From a virus (taxonomy: Duplodnaviria; Heunggongvirae; Uroviricota; Caudoviricetes): a DNA stretch of 42,021 nucleotides. Where the stretch lies: the IMG/VR virus record IMGVR_UViG_2703718855_000003, positions 1 through 42,021 of that record; one strand, written 5' to 3'. Of the stretch, positions 17,118-42,021 are shown one piece after another (the stretch's first letter is position 1; each line of letters opens with the position of its first letter). The position numbers and the translations under genes are program-made. The notes below the pieces were generated by a model. That model was not told where the DNA came from and searched no databases. It saw only the letters and a program-made list of their open reading frames with translations.

Positions 17118-18314
17118 TTATGCGTATTCCCGGCGTTTGTCCGGCGACTCCTCCACCAGCTCCTGCCATGTCGCGGTAAATTCACGTCGCCACTGGTAAA
17201 ACGTGGTTTTATAGTCATCAGTTATGATGTCCGGGTAATCATTTTTCAGCGACTGATAAAATTCCTCGTTCCAGGCGATGTACTGCACCAGGCGTTCGAA
17301 ATAATCCATCACAGGTTCAATCTGCTGGCGTACACCATCGATATACTGGCTGATAGCTTTCGAATCCTCAGTTCCTTCACCGAAACCATTCGAGAAAGCC
17401 TCCTCCTTGATGAGAATCGCGGGAACATCGCTACCTGATGCAATATCGGAAATAATGTTGTCGCGGGCGGCATTTAGCGCGCCATCGATGTTTTGTAAAT
17501 TCAGCGAGGTAACGTCCTCATCCTTCCCGATACTAAGCACACCTTTATTTTTTGCCTCTTTAACATTTTCCCTTTTTCGTCCCGTGGCGGCAGCCATGAT
17601 CCCGTCAAGTTTCGAACCATACTGCACAACTTTAGCCACCAGTACGCCTGCCTTCTGGCTGACGAGATCATTCGCCTCCATCGTATTGATATAGGATTTC
17701 AGGGAATAAAGAACGCGCTGAAACACGCTTCGCCCGGTGAATCCGAACGATGAACTCTGAAACTCCAGATAAATCGGTGTGCCATTGAAAATTTTCAGTG
17801 TGCGTGACGGATGCCAGTCTTTTCCGCCAATCTTCAGCTTTTTATTGGCTTCCTGGAAAAACGGGCTGTTTGGGTTCTGGTCAGTCACCATCGAACCAGA
17901 AGCGTTCAACGGGTCCCACGCGTTGATATACACATCATCTTCTGTCAGTCCGAATGTCGGAAGCGGCTCACGACATGGAACACTGTCGGTGCCCACGCCG
18001 ATCGCTGCGGCACCGTAGCAACGAGACAGAAAAAACAGATTTTTAATCTTCTCGTTAACCTTCATACGTTCCCATACCTCCTGGAAACGCCGCACAACCC
18101 GCTCGTCAGGGTCTGTCTCCACGTTGTACTGACGCGGCTTACACATCGCCATAAGTATGGGTTTTTCGACAAGTTTTCCGCCCAGAGGATGGAATTGCCA
18201 CAGCTGCTTACACAATTCATAGCCAATGTCGGTTCCCGGCTGAATTTCTTCAGCCTCAAGAATATGCATCAGTGCTGAACCGAGGCCGCCAGTAATCTCG
18301 ATCTCTGCCATCAA
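17118..18314 (-). CDS. Major head-module protein (portal or major capsid; not resolved)
   Basis: 398 aa directly downstream of the large terminase; followed by a terminator-like hairpin. Confidence 0.45.
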   Translation of the reverse strand: MMAEIEITGGLGSALMHILEAEEIQPGTDIGYELCKQLWQFHPLGGKLVEKPILMAMCKPRQYNVETDPDERVVRRFQEVWERMKVNEKIKNLFFLSRCYGAAAIGVGTDSVPCREPLPTFGLTEDDVYINAWDPLNASGSMVTDQNPNSPFFQEANKKLKIGGKDWHPSRTLKIFNGTPIYLEFQSSSFGFTGRSVFQRVLYSLKSYINTMEANDLVSQKAGVLVAKVVQYGSKLDGIMAAATGRKRENVKEAKNKGVLSIGKDEDVTSLNLQNIDGALNAARDNIISDIASGSDVPAILIKEEAFSNGFGEGTEDSKAISQYIDGVRQQIEPVMDYFERLVQYIAWNEEFYQSLKNDYPDIITDDYKTTFYQWRREFTATWQELVEESPDKRREYA

Positions 18315-24728: not shown

Positions 24729-24803
<75 letters not shown>

Positions 24804-25090
24804 ATACTGTGCTGGCCCCCGGAATAACACGAATTACCAAGAGAGCCCGCACTGGTCTTTCCGGTGGCAAACAGCACCCCTGCTAACATAAAAGATAAAC
24901 ACCTTCCAGACGCAAAAATACTAACAACTGTTTTTCAGATATCCAAAATATATTTGGTTTTTATTTTTGAAAATATGTATACATATGTATCATAAATATA
25001 CAAGCCATATCATAACCGAATTAAAAATCTTTAGTTATCTCTTTTGCCGTCTGATCACCACCCACCGGCAGCTGAGAATTCCGGCACACA

Positions 25091-25153
25091 ATGAAAAAGG
25101 CCCGCCAGGGCGAGCCATAAAAACTGAATAAAAAAACCGCCCGGGGCGGCGGC
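25091..25153 (-). repeat. Copy 2 of the 65-bp direct repeat / terminator (downstream of the degenerate tRNA-like sequence)
   Basis: ATGAAAAAGGCCCGCCAGGGCGAGCCATAAAAACTGAATAAAAAAACCGCCCGGGGCGGCGG; minus-sense hairpin followed by a T-run. Confidence 0.6.
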
Positions 25154-25519
25154 TAAAACGATAAAAGGACACAATATTATAATGATTATTGGGTTTGGGG
25201 CATCGGGTGCCTCCCGAAGTATTCCACTTTACGTGGATACTGTGGTTTCCCGCTAAACCGACTCTATAAACCACCCTCGCACTGAGGAACGCCCCAATTC
25301 ATGTTTTCCGACACAGAGATGGCGCATCACTGGTTACTCCACGCTAAATCCTGCTTCCTTTCGTGGGCAATGCGCCATTTCTGTGTCATAAAAAATACAG
25401 CACTGAGTCTGTAACCGATCTCCATTACAGAATGAGGGACGATAAAGGTATTAAAGAGATCTGTTCCTCACGAAAACCGCCAGTGCTGTAAAAACTTGTC
25501 CAAAAAACAATGAAGTTGC

Positions 25520-25590
25520 GGAGAACAGGAATCGAACCGGCATTACCAACCTAAGGCTGATGTAATAACCACTATACGATACCTGCATAT
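25520..25590 (-). pseudogene. Degenerate tRNA-like sequence (decayed copy sharing the D-arm and T-loop of the tRNA-Gly scaffold)
   Basis: Reverse complement GCAGGTATCGTATAGTGGTTATTACATCAGCCTTAGGTTGGTAATGCCGGTTCGATTCCTG... shares the D-arm and T-loop with the tRNA-Gly at 24729-24803, but acceptor and anticodon stems do not pair. Confidence 0.4.
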
Positions 25591-26107
25591 AGAGCAGGCC
25601 TCCGTAACCACAATAATGACACTGATACCGATAACAGCCCTTCATTATGATTAAACGGATGCCAGCAATGACCCGCAAGACAGCGGGTAACACCCCTGTG
25701 AACAGAAACTTGCTGCCTTTCGGGTCGAGAGTAATATTACCGATAATTTATATGACATCAAAAACTAATTAGTTTTCATATTTAAACATATGTATAAATA
25801 TGTATCAGACGCATACAATTTATGTTATTTCATCCAGACTTCTGATTTCTCACAGGAAATTGCGAAAAAAAACAACATAAAAATGAACAAATTGGGAGTA
25901 CGCTAACTCCGTTGTCGCAATAAATCACAGTAAGCTCTTCAGAAATAACAGTTCACAAGACTTACATCAACAGTAGTTTTTGTAATGATTAATGTTAACT
26001 GTAGCGTTGAAAAGAAAAGTTTTGACGAAATATGGTGAACTAACAGAGCCTAACGAATAGCCCTATTACGCCGAGCTAATAGCGCTGCCAGCTAAACTTG
26101 CATGGAA

Positions 26108-26184
26108 TGGTCCGCCACCGAGGACTCGAACCTCGCACAATCAACTTAGAAGGTTGATGCTCTATCCCGATGAGCTAGTGGCGG
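26108..26184 (-). tRNA. tRNA-Arg (anticodon UCU)
   Basis: 77-nt cloverleaf: acceptor CCGCCAC/GTGGCGG, D-arm GCTC-ATCGGGATA-GAGC, anticodon arm TCAAC-CTTCTAA-GTTGA, T-arm CGAGG-TTCGAGT-CCTCG, encoded CCA. Confidence 0.85.
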
Positions 26185-26186
26185 AA

Positions 26187-26262
26187 TGGTGGCCCTTGCT
26201 GGATTTGAACCAGCGACCTGGCGATTATGAGTCGCTCGCTCTCACCACTGAGCTAAAGGGCC
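26187..26262 (-). tRNA. tRNA with CAU anticodon (tRNA-Ile2/ileX-like; Met not excluded)
   Basis: 76-nt cloverleaf GGCCCTT...AAGGGCC-A-CCA, anticodon loop CTCATAA; closely resembles E. coli ileX as recalled; 2 nt upstream of the tRNA-Arg. Confidence 0.85.
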
Positions 26263-27116: not shown

Positions 27117-27734
27117 AATCATCCTCTAACAACTTAACAACATTAACTCGCTTTACATAACAAAGAAAATTCCATGTAGTCAAGAGGGTTCAGGAAAGGA
27201 GAAACTAAAATTGCATAGCCATCATAAAGTTTAACGTACCAACCTGCTTTTTCAGGTATAAAAAAACCAACCTCAAGGAAAGGCTGGCATAAGAAAAGTA
27301 AATAATGATTCCACTAAAACTTCGTCGCAGGAGGAATCCTGTGCCGCTTAACATACATAAAATTTAGACAACTAACAATCACAATATAAAATATTTAAGA
27401 TTTCGTTATCAAAATACCAGTCAGTAGAGCGCCAGCTCTCCCGTAGATGGTTAAACATAACAACAAAACCCGCTCAATGGCGGGTTCTGGTGAAGTTCAT
27501 GCGATTAATTCGCCACGCGATACAGCTTTGCGAAGCGTATCGGAATTGAAGCAGTTTATGCGTAAGAAATCAAGCCATTTTTTGAGCAAATGATTCTCGC
27601 ATGGGAATGTATAGCGCACACTCAGCAACAGCCAACCAATTAGCAATTCGCTTTGACCAGTTGTATATGCGCCATTGCTGTCTCCAATGGCGCTGTAGGT
27701 TGCCAGTTGTTCAGGCTGGCTTACGAATTATAAC

Positions 27735-34589: not shown

Positions 34590-35009
34590 TCCATTATTTG
34601 GATTAATTCAATATTCTCGCTGTAGGGGTATAGCAGAAACCACCAAAGCCCGGAGGTGGTGAAATAAAACCGGGCACAACACGAAGTCGCATTTCCGATA
34701 TCCATAAAGAGTCGGTCTTGTCTGTTAAATTTAAATGGTGGGAGTGCGCCTCCGGTTGTGGATAACAACACTGCTGTGTGTAGTCTTGGCGGCATCAGTT
34801 TTTTCTTGAAGTTCGACTGATGTCCGCCCTTTTTAAAGTGAATTTTGTGATGCGGTGAATGCGGCTAAGCGCACGCGGCACAGTTAAAAGTCATGTTAGT
34901 CCTTATTGGTTTGGGTGGGAAAGCCGACTGTAATTGTTAACTGGTTGCAGTCACCTGGAGGCACTAGGCACCGCATCAACAAAGTTCATTTGTAAAAATG
35001 GAGATAATT

Positions 35010-35231
35010 ATGATTGCACATCACTTCGGAACTGATGAAATACCACGTCAGTGTGTGACTCCTGGTGACTATATTCTTCATGAAGGCCGGACATATATTG
35101 CCTCGGCAAACAATATTAAAAAGCGAAAACTTTATATTCGTAACCTGACTACAAAAACATGCATTACTGACTGCATGATTAAAGTCTTCCTCGGTCGTGA
35201 TGGTTTACCTGTAAAGGCGGAGTCATGGTGA
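35010..35231 (+). CDS. kilR: KilR-like cell-division inhibitor
   Basis: 73 aa [46 protein letters not shown]...; GGAGA upstream; matches Rac KilR as I recall it. Confidence 0.65.
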
Positions 35232-35401
35232 TGACTAAGAAAATAAAATGTGCTTACCACCTTTGCAATAAAGAAATTGAAGAAAGCAAAAGTATTAAAA
35301 GACCACTTCATTTCATGCGTGGAGTTATCCCAACGACGGAAATGAAAAAATATTGTAGTGAAAGTTGTGCCGAAAAAGACCAGATGGCACACGAACTTTA
35401 A
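35231..35401 (+). CDS. ydaE: YdaE-like small Cys-rich protein (56 aa)
   Basis: ATG overlaps kilR stop (TGATG); [56 protein letters not shown]; below track cutoff. Confidence 0.5.
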   Translation: MTKKIKCAYHLCNKEIEESKSIKRPLHFMRGVIPTTEMKKYCSESCAEKDQMAHEL

Positions 35402-35475
35402 TTAACTGACTATTCGAAACTGAATTTATGCCAGCAATGGCAGGGATTCGCTCAACCTTAATTAAGGAGAAAAAC

Positions 35476-35751
35476 ATGATTACCAATTATGAAGCCACTG
35501 TTGTAACTACCGATGACATTGTTCACGAGGTTAATCTGGAAGGAAAGCGTATTGGCTACGTGATTAAAACAGAAAATAAAGAAACCCCATTCACTGTGGT
35601 TGATATCGACGGTCCATCAGGCAACGTAAAAACACTTGATGAAGGTGTCACAAAAATGTGCCTGGTTCACATCGGAAAGAATCTGCCCGCAGAAAAAAAA
35701 GCCGGATTTCTGGCAACTCTGATTGCAATGAAATTAGGCGGTGAAATCTGA
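35476..35751 (+). CDS. racC: RacC-like protein (91 aa)
   Basis: AAGGAG upstream of ATG at 35476; size and position immediately upstream of recE as in Rac. Confidence 0.55.
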   Translation: MITNYEATVVTTDDIVHEVNLEGKRIGYVIKTENKETPFTVVDIDGPSGNVKTLDEGVTKMCLVHIGKNLPAEKKAGFLATLIAMKLGGEI

Positions 35752-35852
35752 AAGAAATAGCCTGCGCCATACGCAGGCTATGAACAGTGTGTATCCGGCA
35801 AGATCATTCACTGAACAAAACGAATTTTAATCTGAGTTGAGGTTAAAAAACA

Positions 35853-38800
35853 ATGAGCACAAAACCACTCTTCCTGTTACGGAAAGCGAAAAAATCATCC
35901 GGTGAACCTGACGTCGTCCTGTGGGCAAGCGACGATTTTGAATCGACCTGTGCCACTCTGGACTACCTGATCGTTAAGTCAGGTAAAAAACTGAGCAGCT
36001 ATTTTAAAGCTGTTGCCACGAATTTTCCTGTCGTTAATGACCTGCCCGCTGAAGGTGAGATCGATTTTACCTGGAGTGAACGCTATCAACTCAGCAAAGA
36101 CTCCATGACATGGGAACTAAAACCGGGAGCAGCACCAGACAACGCTCACTATCAAGGCAATACCAACGTCAACGGCGAAGACATGACTGAGATTGAGGAG
36201 AATATGCTACTCCCAATTTCTGGCCAGGAACTGCCCATTCGTTGGCTTGCTCAACACGGCAGCGAAAAACCGGTAACGCACGTTTCACGCGACGGACTCC
36301 AGGCATTACACATTGCTCGGGCTGAAGAACTACCGGCTGTTACTGCCCTGGCTGTTTCCCACAAAACCAGCCTGCTCGACCCGCTGGAAATTCGCGATCT
36401 CCACAAACTGGTTCGTGACACTGACAAAGTTTTCCCTAATCCTGGTAATTCAAACCTGGGACTGATAACTGCTTTTTTCGAAGCATACCTGAACGCTGAC
36501 TACACCGATCGAGGACTGCTGACAAAAGAGTGGATGAAGGGTAATCGTGTTTCACACATCACTCGCACGGCTTCCGGTGCTAATGCTGGCGGCGGAAACC
36601 TCACCGATCGCGGCGAAGGTTTCGTACACGATCTGACGTCACTGGCGCGCGACGTAGCCACTGGCGTACTGGCCCGTTCAATGGATCTGGACATCTATAA
36701 CCTTCATCCGGCACACGCTAAACGCATTGAGGAAATTATCGCTGAAAATAAACCGCCCTTTTCTGTTTTCCGCGACAAATTCATCACCATGCCTGGCGGG
36801 CTGGATTATTCCCGCGCCATCGTGGTTGCGTCCGTAAAAGAAGCACCAATTGGGATCGAGGTCATCCCCGCGCACGTCACTGAATATCTGAACAAAGTAC
36901 TGACTGAAACCGATCATGCCAACCCTGATCCGGAAATCGTGGATATTGCCTGCGGTCGCTCCTCTGCCCCGATGCCGCAGCGAGTAACAGAAGAAGGAAA
37001 ACAGGATGATGAAGAAAAACCGCAACCATCTGGAACAACGGCAGTTGAACAGGGAGAGGCTGAAACAATGGAACCGGACGCAACTGAACATCATCAGGAC
37101 ACGCAGCCGCTGGATGCTCAGTCACAGGTAAATTCTGTTGATGCGAAATATCAGGAACTGCGGGCAGAACTCCATGAAGCCCGGAAAAACATTCCATCAA
37201 AAAATCCTGTCGATGCCGATAAATTGCTTGCTGCATCACGTGGTGAATTTGTTGACGGAATTAGCGACCCGAACGATCCGAAATGGGTTAAGGGGATCCA
37301 GACTCGCGATTCTGTGTACCAGAACCAGCCAGAAACGGAAAAAACCAGCCCGGATGTGAAACAACCTGAGGCAGTAGTGCAACAGGAACCGGAAATAGTC
37401 TGCAATGCCTGCGGTCAGACTGGCGGAGATAACTGCCCTGACTGTGGGGCGGTGACGGGCGACGCAACATACCAGGAAACATTCGATGAAGAGAATCAGG
37501 TTGAAGCTAAGGAAAAAGATCCGGTGGAAATGGAAGGCGCTGAACATCCGCACAATGAGAATGCTGGCAGCGATCCGCATCGTGATTGCAGTGATGAAAC
37601 TGGTGAAGCGTCAGCTCCTGTAGCAACTGAAATCATGTGGCCGTCATATTTCGAGCCTGGCCGCTATGAAAACCTCCCGAACGAGGTTTATCACTCCGCC
37701 AACGGAATAAGCAGCACGATGCTGAAGGATGCCCGTATCAGCCTGATGTATTACCACGGGCGGCACATTGCCGGAACTATTCCGAACGAGGAAAGTGATG
37801 CACTGCTGCGTGGGCGGATCATTCACAGCTATGTTCTGGAAACGGATAAATTCGCTGATGAATATGCCATTCCGGTACCGGTTCCTGAATATGTGGTTAC
37901 TACTTCTAACGAACTGATCGCCATCATTAAAAAACACAATGCCAGTCTGCCAGCACTGATGACACCAGAGCAGATGAAAGAGTGGATCGAAAGCTACAAC
38001 AGCACTCTTATACAGCCACTGTCTGTAAGTGCTGGGGCCGAAGAAACAGGCATCCTTTACGGTTCGCTTCCGGTGGAATTTCGGCGTATTCCTGAGGGGG
38101 AAAAACATACAGCATCAGCAATGAAAGCCTGTATTAAAGAATACAACGCAAGCCTCCCTCCTCTGTTGAAAACCAGTGGAGCACGGGAGCAGCTTCTGGA
38201 TCAAATTGAAACTGTAGACCCAGAACTGGCAAAAAAAGAACGTGCTAAATCTTTGCCTTACAACATCAGTGGCACAAAAGAGCAATTAACCGAAATCGCA
38301 CGGAAAATTCGCCCGGAACTGGTGACACTGGAGGACTGGCAAAAACGCCAGCAAGAAGAAAACGCCGGGAAAACGTTTATCAGTCCGGATATGTATGAAC
38401 AGGCAAAAAATATTCACGCTGCAATGCAAAACAATACTGATGCAGCAAGGCTACTCAACCACCCGGATCGCAAATCTGAAATCAGCTATTTCGGGTTTGA
38501 TGAAGAAACCGGGCTGGAAATCAGGGTCCGTCCTGATATCGAAATCCGGCTGCCATACGAAAGCATTTGCGCTGACGTGAAGTCAGTCAGCCTCGGTTAT
38601 GTGCGGCAGGAACGACTTAAAGATCGCCTGCACCGTGAAATTATTGAGCGTGATTATCACCTCAGCGCCGCAATGTATTGCGATGTGGCAAACCTGGACA
38701 AATTTTTCTGGATCTTCGTCAACAAAGATGCTGGCTATCACTGGGTGGCTGTCGTGGAAGCCTCGCAGGAACTCCTGGAACTTGGTCGACAGGAATATCG

Positions 38801-38927
38801 CCGGACGCTACGCCAGATAAACGAAGCCCTAGAGACAAACAACTGGCCAGCACCGATTACCGAAAGTTATACCGACGAATTAAACGACTTTGATCTTCGT
38901 CGTCTTGAAGCACTGCATCTGGCTTAA
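35853..38927 (+). CDS. recE: Exodeoxyribonuclease VIII (RecE), full-length form
   Basis: 1024 aa; acidic middle region; C-terminal nuclease domain (...[46 protein letters not shown]...[11 protein letters not shown]...). Confidence 0.8.
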
Positions 38928-40030
38928 TGGAGAACCTGACCATGCAAAATACCAATATCATCACGACAGAGCAGACACCAAATACCATTTCTGCCAGTAA
39001 CACTATTTTTAACGTTCAGGCGTTGACGCAACTTCAGGCAGTAGCCGGGTTGATGTCACAGGCCACCGTCACAGTTCCCGATCACCTTCGCGGAAATCCT
39101 GCCGACTGCATGGCAATCATCATGCAAGCCATGCAATGGGGCATGAACCCCTACGCTGTGGCTCAGAAAACACACCTGGTAAACGGAGTTCTGGGTTATG
39201 AAGCACAACTGGTTAACGCTGTGATCTCTAGCTCAAGTGCAATTGTAGGCCGCTTCCATTACAAGTACGAGGGAGACTGGGAGAAATGCTCTCGCACCCG
39301 AGTGGAGACCGTTAAGAAAACGGCCAAAGGAGGCGGAATCTATGAGAAAAAAGAAACGCTCCCATGTTGGACCAGTGAAGATGAGTATGGTCTCTCAGTT
39401 CGAGTTGGTGCAGTTCTTCGCGGTGAAAGTGAGATTACCTGGGGAGAACCGGTGTTTCTTTCCAGCGTGATTACGCGTAATTCTCCTTTATGGACCTCAA
39501 ACCCGAAACAACAGCTCGCCTATCTGGCGTTGAAATACTGGGCTCGCCTTTATTGTCCTGACGTCATCCTGGGCGTGTATACCCCGGACGAACTGGAAGA
39601 GCCACAGGAAAAAATCATCAATCCTGTGCCGGTACAGAATTATAGCGAGGTAAGCGAGCAGCGAACAGAAACCATCGAACAGCGTATTGACGAAGCGTGG
39701 ATTGATGAATTCCGGCAGCGTGTCGAAAGCGCGGCCACGACTGAGGAAACCACTGCATTACGCCAAGAGATAGAGGATCAGAAAAACCAGATCGGCGAAT
39801 TCTTTGCCGAGCTTAAAGGAAAAGTGGTTCGGCGTCATCACCGTCTCAATGCTATTGCCAGTATCGAGAAGATGATAAATGACCTTCCTTCATCAGGTGA
39901 TCCAGAAGCAGAACAAAAATTTACTGCTCTGGAAAATACGCTGAATGCTGCCCGGCCACATCTGGGTGAATTATATGAGGCGTATAAAACGACACTGACA
40001 GATATGAAACCAGAATATATCGGCTCCTGA
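38927..40030 (+). CDS. RecT/Redbeta-family single-strand annealing protein with C-terminal extension
   Basis: 367 aa, start overlaps recE stop (TAATGG coupling); core resembles the RecT family but is not the canonical 269-aa Rac RecT. Confidence 0.55.
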   Translation: MENLTMQNTNIITTEQTPNTISASNTIFNVQALTQLQAVAGLMSQATVTVPDHLRGNPADCMAIIMQAMQWGMNPYAVAQKTHLVNGVLGYEAQLVNAVISSSSAIVGRFHYKYEGDWEKCSRTRVETVKKTAKGGGIYEKKETLPCWTSEDEYGLSVRVGAVLRGESEITWGEPVFLSSVITRNSPLWTSNPKQQLAYLALKYWARLYCPDVILGVYTPDELEEPQEKIINPVPVQNYSEVSEQRTETIEQRIDEAWIDEFRQRVESAATTEETTALRQEIEDQKNQIGEFFAELKGKVVRRHHRLNAIASIEKMINDLPSSGDPEAEQKFTALENTLNAARPHLGELYEAYKTTLTDMKPEYIGS

Positions 40031-40078
40031 TATTGACTTTGGCGGTGTAGCCTCACCGCCATCACAAAATTTTATTAT

Positions 40079-40288
40079 ATGAGAGAAAAAACAATGCGGT
40101 ATGAAAAAGTCAAACCATGCCCTTTTTGTGGTTGTCCATCAGTAACGGTGAAAGCCATTTCAGGATATTACCGCGCGAAGTGTAACGGATGCGAATCCCG
40201 AACCGGCTATGGTGGAAGTGAAAAAGAAGCACTCGAACGATGGAATAAACGAACCACTGGAAATAATAATGGAGGTGTTCATGTATAA
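40079..40288 (+). CDS. ralR: Restriction alleviation protein (Lar/RalR family)
   Basis: 69 aa with KPCPFCGCPSVTVKAISGYYRAKCNGCESRTGYGGSEKEALERWNKR, the Lar zinc-ribbon signature. Confidence 0.75.
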   Translation: MREKTMRYEKVKPCPFCGCPSVTVKAISGYYRAKCNGCESRTGYGGSEKEALERWNKRTTGNNNGGVHV

Positions 40289-40469
40289 AATTACCGCCAC
40301 TATTGAAAAGGAAGGTGGCACTCCTACTAACTGGACAAGGTACTCAAAAACAAAGTTAACCAAATCGGAATGCGAAAAAATGCTCTCAGGGAAAAAAGAA
40401 GCAGGCGTTTCCAGAGAGCAGAAAGTAAAACTGATAAATTTTAATTGCGAGAAACTTCAGTCCTCGTGA
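40281..40469 (+). CDS. ydaC: YdaC-like small protein
   Basis: ATG at 40281 with GGAGGTG upstream (track ORF 40209..40469 starts inside ralR); 62 aa. Confidence 0.5.
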   Translation: MYKITATIEKEGGTPTNWTRYSKTKLTKSECEKMLSGKKEAGVSREQKVKLINFNCEKLQSS

Positions 40470-40568
40470 ATTGCATTGTATTCAAATTAAAACTTCATAG
40501 CTGATTATTAATAATCAACATCGGGCGTCAATTTCAGTCTAACATTGGCGCCTGCCAGAGGTGATGCG

Positions 40569-40784
40569 ATGGCACAAGTGATCTTTAATGAAGAGTGGAT
40601 GGTTGAATACGGTCTGATGCTTCGTACTGGTCTGGGGGCCAGACAAATTGAAGCATACCGCCAGAACTGTTGGGTGGAAGGCTTCCACTTCAAACGAGTA
40701 TCTCCTTTAGGTAAGCCAGACAGCAAGCGAGGGATTATCTGGTACAACTATCCGAAGATAAATCAGTTTATCAAAGACTCATGA
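40569..40784 (+). CDS. ydaQ: Excisionase-like protein (YdaQ/Xis)
   Basis: ATG at 40569 with GAGGTGA upstream; 71 aa [21 protein letters not shown]...; stop overlaps the integrase start (TGATATG). Confidence 0.6.
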
Positions 40785-40785
40785 T

Positions 40786-42021
40786 ATGTCTAAATTACCA
40801 ACAGGTGTCGAGATTCGGGGAAAATACATTCGCATCTGGTTCATGTTTCGAGGAAAACGATGTCGGGAAACATTGAAAGGCTGGGAGGTTACTAACAGTA
40901 ATATTAAAAAGGCCGGGAATTTAAGAGCGTTGATAGTTCACGAAATCAATTCCGGCGAATTCGAGTATTTAAGACGTTTTCCCCAGTCCAGCACTGGGGC
41001 AAAAATGGTGACAACGAAGGTCATAAAAACATTCGGGGAGCTTTGTGATATCTGGACAAAAATTAAAGAGACAGAGTTAACAACAAACACAATGAAGAAA
41101 ACGAAATCACAATTAAAAACACTCAGGATAATAATTTGTGAGAGTACCCCAATATCACATATTCGTTATAGCGATATCTTAAACTACCGGAATGAACTGC
41201 TGCATGGAGAAACGCTTTACCTGGATAATCCAAGATCCAACAAAAAAGGAAGAACCGTGCGCACAGTTGATAACTATATCGCCCTGCTCTGTTCATTGTT
41301 ACGTTTTGCGTATCAGTCGGGATTTATATCAACCAAACCATTTGAAGGAGTAAAAAAATTACAGCGAAACAGAATAAAGCCTGATCCGTTATCTAAAACA
41401 GAATTCAATGCATTAATGGAAAGTGAAAAAGGACAGAGCCAGAACTTGTGGAAATTTGCCGTTTACTCCGGGCTTCGTCACGGGGAACTGGCTGCTCTGG
41501 CATGGGAGGATGTGGATTTCGAGAAGGGAATTGTGAATGTCAGAAGAAACCTGACGATACTTGATATGTTCGGTCCCCCAAAAACAAATGCCGGGATCCG
41601 GACGGTAACATTACTGCAGCCGGCTCTTGAAGCACTGAAGGAGCAATACAAACTGACCGGGCATCATCGCAAAAGTGAAATCACTTTTTATCATCGGGAG
41701 TACGGCAGAACTGAAAAGCAAAAACTGCATTTTGTTTTCATGCCCAGGGTGTGTAACGGAAAACAGAAACCTTATTACTCGGTAAGCAGTTTGGGAGCGA
41801 GATGGAATGCAGCTGTAAAACGTGCTGGTATTCGCCGCCGTAATCCGTACCATACGCGACATACTTTTGCCTGCTGGCTGTTGACGGCAGGAGCGAACCC
41901 GGCATTTATAGCCAGCCAGATGGGGCATGAAACTGCGCAGATGGTGTATGAAATTTACGGTATGTGGATTGATGACATGAACGACGAACAGGTAGCTATG
42001 TTGAATGCGCGGTTACCGTAG
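40786..42021 (+). CDS. intR: Tyrosine site-specific integrase (Rac IntR-like)
   Basis: 411 aa; C-terminal catalytic region ...RHGELAALAWEDVDF...RTVTLL...YHTRHTFACWLLTAGANPAFIASQMGHETAQMVYEIYG... with the conserved Arg/His/Tyr residues; stop codon is the last triplet of the window. Confidence 0.85.
   Translation: MSKLPTGVEIRGKYIRIWFMFRGKRCRETLKGWEVTNSNIKKAGNLRALIVHEINSGEFEYLRRFPQSSTGAKMVTTKVIKTFGELCDIWTKIKETELTTNTMKKTKSQLKTLRIIICESTPISHIRYSDILNYRNELLHGETLYLDNPRSNKKGRTVRTVDNYIALLCSLLRFAYQSGFISTKPFEGVKKLQRNRIKPDPLSKTEFNALMESEKGQSQNLWKFAVYSGLRHGELAALAWEDVDFEKGIVNVRRNLTILDMFGPPKTNAGIRTVTLLQPALEALKEQYKLTGHHRKSEITFYHREYGRTEKQKLHFVFMPRVCNGKQKPYYSVSSLGARWNAAVKRAGIRRRNPYHTRHTFACWLLTAGANPAFIASQMGHETAQMVYEIYGMWIDDMNDEQVAMLNARLP

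Follow-up and report, generated by a model that had tools for sequence, protein, structure and literature searches.

A predicted Gifsy-type RecE nuclease/annealase cassette in a Rac-like prophage of Escherichia coli

We analyzed a recE-recT gene pair encoded at positions 35,853 to 40,030 of a 42,021-nucleotide stretch of viral DNA (Caudoviricetes; IMG/VR record IMGVR_UViG_2703718855_000003, positions 1 to 42,021; this whole stretch is hereafter "the window"). Our analysis indicates with high confidence that the pair carries a Gifsy-type cassette of RecE nuclease domain and single-stranded DNA annealing protein (annealase), which forms the recombination module of a Rac-like prophage and would act by the mechanism of its homologues. 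RecE itself appears to be a chimera, in which a Rac-type N-terminal region is joined to a foreign nuclease domain that arrived in the same DNA block as recT. The original prediction, made from the letters of the window alone, had proposed an alternative recombination pair at this position, and sequence, fold and genomic context support that proposal.

The predicted chimeric build of RecE emerges from comparison with the Rac prophage of E. coli K-12. By blastn, the window is 97% identical to K-12 Rac over 34615-37622 and 95.5% identical over 40040-42021, and 37623-40039 shows no detectable homology, which sets the breakpoints at 37622/37623 and 40039/40040. The exchanged block measures 2417 bp here versus 1640 bp in K-12. 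Its left edge falls where the RecE nuclease domain begins (amino acid (aa) ~590); in K-12 RecE, the nuclease domain spans ~residues 564-866 (PMC11611040). At the protein level, aa 1-587 are near-identical to K-12 RecE, and beyond this point similarity collapses in BLASTP: the nuclease domain, which is ~155 aa longer than its K-12 counterpart, shows 29% identity with 133 residues alignable. The features of recE and of the exchanged cassette are as follows.

35853..38927, plus strand: recE, putative chimeric exodeoxyribonuclease VIII, 1024 aa (open reading frame (ORF); NCBIfam; recE annotation in the identical RefSeq locus)
35853..37622, plus strand: Rac K-12-type RecE N-terminal part, aa 1-590 (blastn and BLASTP against K-12; Pfam Exonuc_VIII)
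37623..40039, plus strand: replaced cassette, comprising RecE aa 591-1024 together with the complete annealase gene (blastn breakpoints)
37623..38924, plus strand: Gifsy/HK225-type PD-(D/E)XK nuclease domain, RecE aa 591-1024
37896..38363, plus strand: ~155-aa helical insertion, RecE aa 682-837, in which "xxNASLP" helix-loop-helix units recur (AlphaFold2 model; conservation in homologues)
38868..38924, plus strand: conserved acidic RecE C-terminal tail, DELNDFDxRRLEAL (homologue alignment, co-occurrence)

The 1024-aa ORF with its C-terminal nuclease core is exactly as first described. Pfam recognizes Exonuc_VIII at aa 2-178 and the PDDEXK-like DUF3799 at aa 836-1000, and the NCBIfam exodeoxyribonuclease VIII equivalog (NF007259/PRK09709) matches with 1525.9 bits over a cut-off of 1269, most of this score coming from the N-terminal 590 residues. 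The original prediction went astray in treating this RecE as ordinary, for its nuclease domain is as foreign to K-12 as the RecT that follows it. For that domain, identity is 51% with the HK225 RecE C-terminus, ~45% with Gifsy-2 RecE and 52% with Gifsy-1 RecE. Moreover, the catalytic residues H658, D895, D908 and K910 are conserved and align with H652, D748, D759 and K761 of K-12 RecE, so that the domain carries the PD-DxK active site with its RecE-specific histidine, as defined in PMC11611040. It also has the RecE nuclease fold.

Two further elements distinguish the nuclease domain. The insertion, whose role in the nuclease is putative, is all-helical in the AlphaFold2 model (predicted local distance difference test score (pLDDT) 85-95) and is kept in homologues. 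It lies at about the site of the disordered DNA-binding loops at the channel rim in K-12 RecE, residues 665-698 (PMC11611040). The acidic tail is nearly invariant in an alignment whose nuclease domains are otherwise ~50% identical, and has low pLDDT in the isolated model. When the nuclease insertion and the RecT C-terminal domain were each scanned alone against Pfam, only sub-threshold matches were returned (spectrin repeat, E=0.007; Ish1, E=0.16). We had considered the "NASLP" repeats as HeH/SAP-like DNA-binding motifs and dropped this idea, which the Pfam scans do not support.

The N-terminal part of RecE is itself mosaic. Window positions 36150-36506 (RecE aa ~100-218) have no DNA homology to the phage genome Rac-SA53, which is elsewhere 96-98% identical, and at the protein level RecE aa ~100-218 are only 18-25% identical to RecE of strain E9.

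The second gene encodes a RecT-family annealase, read here as a 367-aa ORF (38927..40030, plus strand) whose numbering we use throughout and whose translation contains both peptide strings cited in the original prediction. Pfam RecT (PF03837) matches aa 41-227 with E=1.2e-36 and 126.6 bits over a cut-off of 24, bearing out the predicted RecT/Redbeta-like core. The same model gives 188.9 bits for K-12 RecT and 115.6 bits for lambda Bet, so that this annealase and Redbeta lie at about equal distances from the RecT centroid. PHROG 561, "RecT-like ssDNA annealing protein", matches with E=3.8e-153, and the N-terminal annealing domain has the Redbeta/RecT (Rad52-like) fold. That the protein differs from the 269-aa RecT of Rac also held: BLASTP against K-12 RecT finds no similarity (best E=38), and hhalign of the family profile against the single K-12 RecT sequence is not significant (E=0.6), with the shared helix motif CxxMxxxxxQxxxxG(L/M)xP aligned. 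Neither a RecT nor a Bet model of NCBIfam matches the annealase, the sole match being RqcH_arch (E=0.0099, 14.7 bits versus a cut-off of 400), and no annealase was found among PDB sequences by phmmer with the 367-aa protein or by hmmsearch with the family profile.

The AlphaFold2 model divides the annealase into an alpha/beta core, a disordered acidic linker and a helical domain.

39014..39568, plus strand: N-terminal annealing core, aa 30-214, mixed alpha/beta, basic (isoelectric point (pI) 8.3)
39569..39691, plus strand: acidic variable linker, predicted disordered, aa 215-255, net charge -7 (AlphaFold2 model; alignment indels; charge)
39692..40027, plus strand: C-terminal helical domain, aa 256-367, with the DMKPEY tail at its end

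The linker has pLDDT below 50 over aa 214-252 and many indels in the alignment, and the C-terminal helical domain is well predicted (pLDDT ~89 over aa 256-364). In the 43-sequence alignment, its helices are kept, and the tail shows no variation at D359, P362, E363 and Y364 and at least 90% conservation at M360 and K361. The original prediction had described an acidic C-terminal extension of ~100 aa; the acidity is real (net charge -10, pI 4.8), but the region runs for 140 residues past the Pfam core. Moreover, the alignments show it to be a conserved domain of the whole family rather than a peculiarity of this protein.

Homologue searches place the annealase in a large and already named family. 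Among 6535 matches, the best 120 are all 336-386 aa long (mostly 360-386), nearly all at 95-99% query coverage, and belong to E. coli, Salmonella, Citrobacter, Klebsiella, Erwinia and related bacteria. The names they bear are "RecT family recombinase", "Gifsy-2 prophage RecT" and, where the record is older, "enterohemolysin". Phage matches include Rac-SA53 (99.7% identity), HK225 and mEp237 (64%), and Gifsy-1/-2 and SPN3UB (61.5%); for Gifsy-1/-2 RecT, this identity covers 98% of the length and takes in both the C-terminal helical domain and the DMKPEY tail. PMC8093625 cites an EHAP1-like E. coli/Salmonella subgroup within the RecT/Redbeta superfamily. Together with the "enterohemolysin" names, this citation suggests that the Gifsy-type RecT family is probably the EHAP1-like subgroup of Iyer et al. 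2002. Gifsy recET orthologues, de-repressed by mutation, suppress recombination defects, the Gifsy prophages having been found in a recB-suppressor study (PMC3121763). Our literature search for a descriptive paper on Rac-SA53 found none, and a search for "enterohemolysin" with RecT returned only unrelated epidemiology of Shiga toxin-producing E. coli, in which "rect" had matched "rectal". Overall, the "non-canonical" label of the original prediction stands in that the protein is not the RecT of Rac, but the pair is, as judged from these matches, a member of the widespread, known Gifsy/"enterohemolysin"-type RecET family, sequenced before and correctly annotated, and so not new.

The original prediction also held that recE and recT are translationally coupled through the sequence TAATGG. 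This motif is present at 38925-38930, where the recE stop codon overlaps an ATG at 38927, but this ATG lacks a Shine-Dalgarno sequence, and a second start is the likelier one.

38929..38932, plus strand: Shine-Dalgarno GGAG, 9 nt 5' of ATG 38942 (read from the sequence)
38942..40030, plus strand: recT-like gene as read from the likely start codon, 362 aa (Prokaryotic Genome Annotation Pipeline (PGAP) start; N-termini of homologues; cluster representative)

PGAP places the start at 38942 (362 aa), the N-termini of most homologues align there, and a 362-aa cluster representative is 99% identical to the annealase. The gene therefore probably begins at ATG 38942 and encodes a 362-aa protein. In HK225 and Gifsy-2, recE and recT are likewise separated by gaps of 8-10 nt rather than overlapping, which together with the start at 38942 suggests that the two genes are tightly packed and makes an overlap improbable.

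The C-terminal domain of the annealase is rare and closely tied to its gene neighbourhood. Searching exhaustively with the isolated segment aa 255-367 yielded only 47 representative clusters from 1.84 billion proteins, and in every case the match lay at the C-terminus. In Pfam scans of ten such proteins, seven had RecT-family cores only, two resembled debris of RecE-RecT fusions, and one gave no Pfam match. We then compared 80 related loci, sampled one per species. recT lies directly 3' of the nuclease in 74 of the 78 loci with a readable recT ORF. Wherever recT carries the C-terminal-domain tail and an upstream nuclease is recognizable, that nuclease ends in DFDxRRLEAL (58 of 58), and every shorter recT that lacks the C-terminal domain follows a short nuclease of ~275 aa whose tail reads RPxWAK (15 of 15), a sequence that resembles LPRWAKEYAND of K-12 RecE. 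The sole apparent exception to the pairing of tail and domain is a truncated recT. The parts of the module also differ in divergence: with the proportion of synonymous differences (pS) saturated at ~0.7-0.8, the annealing core has a proportion of nonsynonymous differences (pN) of 0.09-0.19, compared with 0.33 for the nuclease domain and 0.36-0.40 for the C-terminal domain. Purifying selection thus acts on all parts, and the C-terminal and nuclease domains diverge at similar rates, faster than the core.

The C-terminal regions of annealases bind partner proteins (PMC11783212). RecT binds RecE but does not bind lambda Exo; in Redbeta, the C-terminal domain has overlapping binding sites for lambda Exo and for SSB, the single-stranded DNA-binding protein; and the use of a C-terminal domain by RecT-type annealases to bind exonuclease is stated to be unknown (PMC11611040). 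From these precedents, the co-occurrence of C-terminal domain and exonuclease tail, and their similar divergence, we infer that aa 256-367 may be a docking module for the cognate exonuclease and/or SSB, a putative role that fits the data. A more specific proposal, which we put forward tentatively and consider rather doubtful, is that the C-terminal domain would bind the RecE-type tail DELNDFDxRRLEAL, and that exonuclease and SSB could compete for one site in a peptide-mimicry "hand-off". The "DFD" core of the RecE tail resembles the C-terminal tail of SSB, ...DFDDDIPF.

The proposed mechanism follows the homologous systems. On this reading, the RecE nuclease domain and the annealase were replaced together, as a single 2.4-kb block (37623-40039), by their counterparts from the Gifsy-1/-2, HK225 and mEp237 type, with the long Rac-type RecE N-terminal region and the downstream ralR-xis-int genes retained. 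By homology, the RecE nuclease domain would resect the 5' strand of a DNA end. The basic N-terminal core would then load the annealase on the 3' overhang and pair it with complementary single-stranded DNA. The C-terminal helical domain, on its flexible acidic linker, may dock a partner as in Redbeta, either the exonuclease (possibly via DELNDFDxRRLEAL) and/or the host SSB.

Natural recombinants of the module occur in other Rac-like prophages. Those of strains EC11, E9 and ETEC1718 combine this RecE nuclease domain with another RecT, 350 aa long (WP_001004422/WP_001004419). For EC11 and E9, the nuclease domain of RecE matches that of the window at ~100% identity, RecT aa 1-293 are only 23-90% identical, and the last ~65 residues are 96-100% identical. 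Correspondingly, their DNA is ~99% identical to the window up to ~38900, 27-83% identical over 38920-39820 and ~99% identical beyond. This profile is that of a double crossover inside the module, which makes recT modular in its own right. We considered these recombinants as proof that RecE and the C-terminus of its RecT have to remain together and rejected that use of them, as they reflect a simple recent double crossover between prophages that are otherwise ~99% identical.

A sister RecT group in Pantoea, Erwinia, Proteus, Photorhabdus and Xenorhabdus has a core that is 48-61% identical to that of this annealase. Its members measure ~280 aa, end in ...TDVYxIRKxEL... and lack the C-terminal helical domain, and their partners are single-domain ~275-aa exonucleases with the RPxWAK tail.

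Several points weigh against our interpretation of a functional recombination pair with a docking domain. Our literature search found no recombineering test of this RecT subfamily, Foldseek of the whole annealase model against the PDB returned nothing significant, and the AlphaFold2 models were built on shallow alignments (43 and 17 sequences; predicted template modelling scores 0.37 and 0.54). The co-occurrence of tail and C-terminal domain concerns adjacent genes in two clades, so that shared ancestry alone could explain it, and the recombination within recT in EC11 and E9 does not prove a functional pairing. In one alternative, the pair is functional and the C-terminal domain would serve only SSB, control of oligomerization or some other partner, the linkage to the exonuclease tail being co-inheritance. 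Annealase activity does depend on host SSB (PMC11611040), the DMKPEY tail is conserved across hosts with similar SSB tails, the association of domain and tail is confounded by phylogeny, and the recT-internal recombinants show that parts of recT can be exchanged. We nonetheless judge this alternative unlikely, though far from negligible: the domain is missing from precisely those loci that have the other type of exonuclease, the C-terminal and nuclease domains diverge alike and faster than the core, and the Redbeta C-terminal domain, with overlapping sites for exonuclease and SSB, offers a precedent for docking both.

The pair might instead be non-functional and decaying, the remnant of a cryptic prophage; this is how Rac in K-12, annotated as cryptic, is commonly viewed. 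The adjoining racC-like gene is called frameshifted in the identical locus of E. coli RM11911, in some strains this recE is disrupted by IS100, and RecE-RecT fusion or deletion debris is present in databases. Yet both ORFs are intact here with every catalytic residue conserved, nonsynonymous divergence stays far under the saturated synonymous divergence, a near-identical pair occurs in Rac-SA53, which was deposited as a complete phage genome, and the window also has terminase, lysis and tail genes; decay is therefore very improbable. We give even less credence to the notion that the 367-aa protein is a haemolytic factor, which amounts to taking literally the name "enterohemolysin" borne by several NCBI and UniRef homologues of 60-65% identity. 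The protein has a RecT Pfam domain and a Redbeta-like fold, its gene lies directly 3' of a RecE-type nuclease in phage early operons, the same clusters are renamed "RecT family recombinase" in newer records, and the family is cited in PMC8093625 as a RecT/Redbeta superfamily subgroup. This haemolysin reading is thus highly implausible, and a Gifsy-type recombination pair remains our preferred explanation.

Comparison with known systems shows how the pair combines features of two lineages. In Gifsy-1/-2, HK225 and mEp237, RecT shows 61-64% identity to this one along its entire length, C-terminal domain and DMKPEY included. Their RecE nuclease domain shows 45-52% identity and has both the helical insertion and the DELNDFDxRRLEAL tail, and the genes are likewise closely spaced and in the same order. 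Between these phages' RecT and the one described here, the C-terminal domain is only 26-48% identical and the core 80-100%. The systems also differ in the RecE N-terminus: here its ~590 residues are of the Rac K-12 type, and identity to the Gifsy/HK225 N-terminus is 27-41% (BLASTP segments, aa 3-366). Rac-SA53 (KU052037) is the same prophage type at the same ttcA site, with 98% DNA identity from 36507 to the end of the window; its RecE measures 1048 aa and differs in an N-terminal segment.

K-12 Rac RecE/RecT, the RecET of recombineering, belongs to the same prophage family, with the same integration site and operon position and the near-identical RecE N-terminal region. K-12 RecE likewise has a RecE-fold PD-DxK nuclease with the same catalytic residues, and K-12 RecT likewise matches Pfam RecT. 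However, K-12 RecT is ~95 aa shorter than this annealase, lacks the folded C-terminal domain and has no BLASTP similarity to it, and K-12 RecE ends in LPRWAKEYAND rather than DFDxRRLEAL. Relative to lambda Red (Exo/Redbeta), the partner nuclease here is of the RecE type, not the lambda Exo type, and the C-terminal domain is larger (~110 aa) and unmatched to that of Redbeta; no Bet equivalog matches the annealase.

The genomic setting is that of a Rac-like prophage. The 4.2-kb recE-recT stretch has 100% DNA identity to three RefSeq complete genomes, those of E. coli RM11911, RM13745 and RM13752, in which the genes are annotated as "recE: exodeoxyribonuclease VIII" and "RecT family recombinase". 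In RM11911 the gene order is kilR-ydaE-(racC)-recE-recT-ralR-DUF1187-xisR-intR-ttcA, and repressor, replication, lysis and terminase genes lie 5' of that stretch; terminase, lysis and tail genes are likewise carried by the window. The host element is thus a Rac-like prophage at the Rac attachment site beside ttcA, with the gene order of K-12 Rac, and the locus is the recombination module of the prophage early-left operon. Among 5426 complete E. coli genomes, 196 carry this cassette and 1751 carry the K-12-type cassette, which makes this allele a minority form that is already annotated.

Several neighbouring features were noted along the way. The window as a whole is 99.9% identical to RM11911 but lacks, at 27652-27654, a 1320-bp block present there in RM11911, which holds DUF1133, DUF1364 and DUF1367 genes. 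We had considered RM11911 itself as the source of the window; this difference points to a close relative instead. Just 5' of recE lies the racC-like gene (~35477-35751, plus strand), "frameshifted" according to PGAP in the identical RM11911 locus; the ORF list of the window has a 107-aa ORF at this gene (35428-35751). On the 3' side of recT, 40079-40469 (plus strand) holds a restriction-alleviation or toxin gene of the RalR/Lar type (Pfam Lar_restr_allev), overlapped by a DUF1187 gene. Their K-12 counterparts are ralR and rcbA, where the K-12 annotation adds the antisense small RNA RalA. Farther away on the minus strand are three tRNA genes (24731-26262; Gly-tcc, Arg-tct and one with a CAT anticodon, called Met by ARAGORN and Ile by PGAP) and, adjoining the terminase at ~17175-18311, a gene called "anti-CBASS protein Acb1 family protein" by PGAP in the matching RM11911 annotation.

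The discovery value of this locus is low: its genes are rightly named in RefSeq and GenBank, the family has been known for two decades, and its Gifsy version has been shown by Salmonella genetics to promote recombination. Our analysis adds the precise mapping of the cassette boundaries to the domain border of RecE, the recognition of two domains in the annealase and of a helical insertion in the nuclease, and the strict co-occurrence of C-terminal domain and exonuclease tail. E. coli thus has two very different RecET nuclease/annealase cassettes on one RecE N-terminal scaffold. This allele and its natural recombinants offer a clean, host-matched system for the question of whether the C-terminal domain binds the exonuclease, and the pair could be benchmarked for recombineering. 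If the peptide-mimicry proposal were true, the natural chimeras, with one RecE N-terminus on two cassettes and one nuclease with two annealase cores, would be specificity swaps, and the pair would represent annealase-exonuclease coupling of a kind not yet described.

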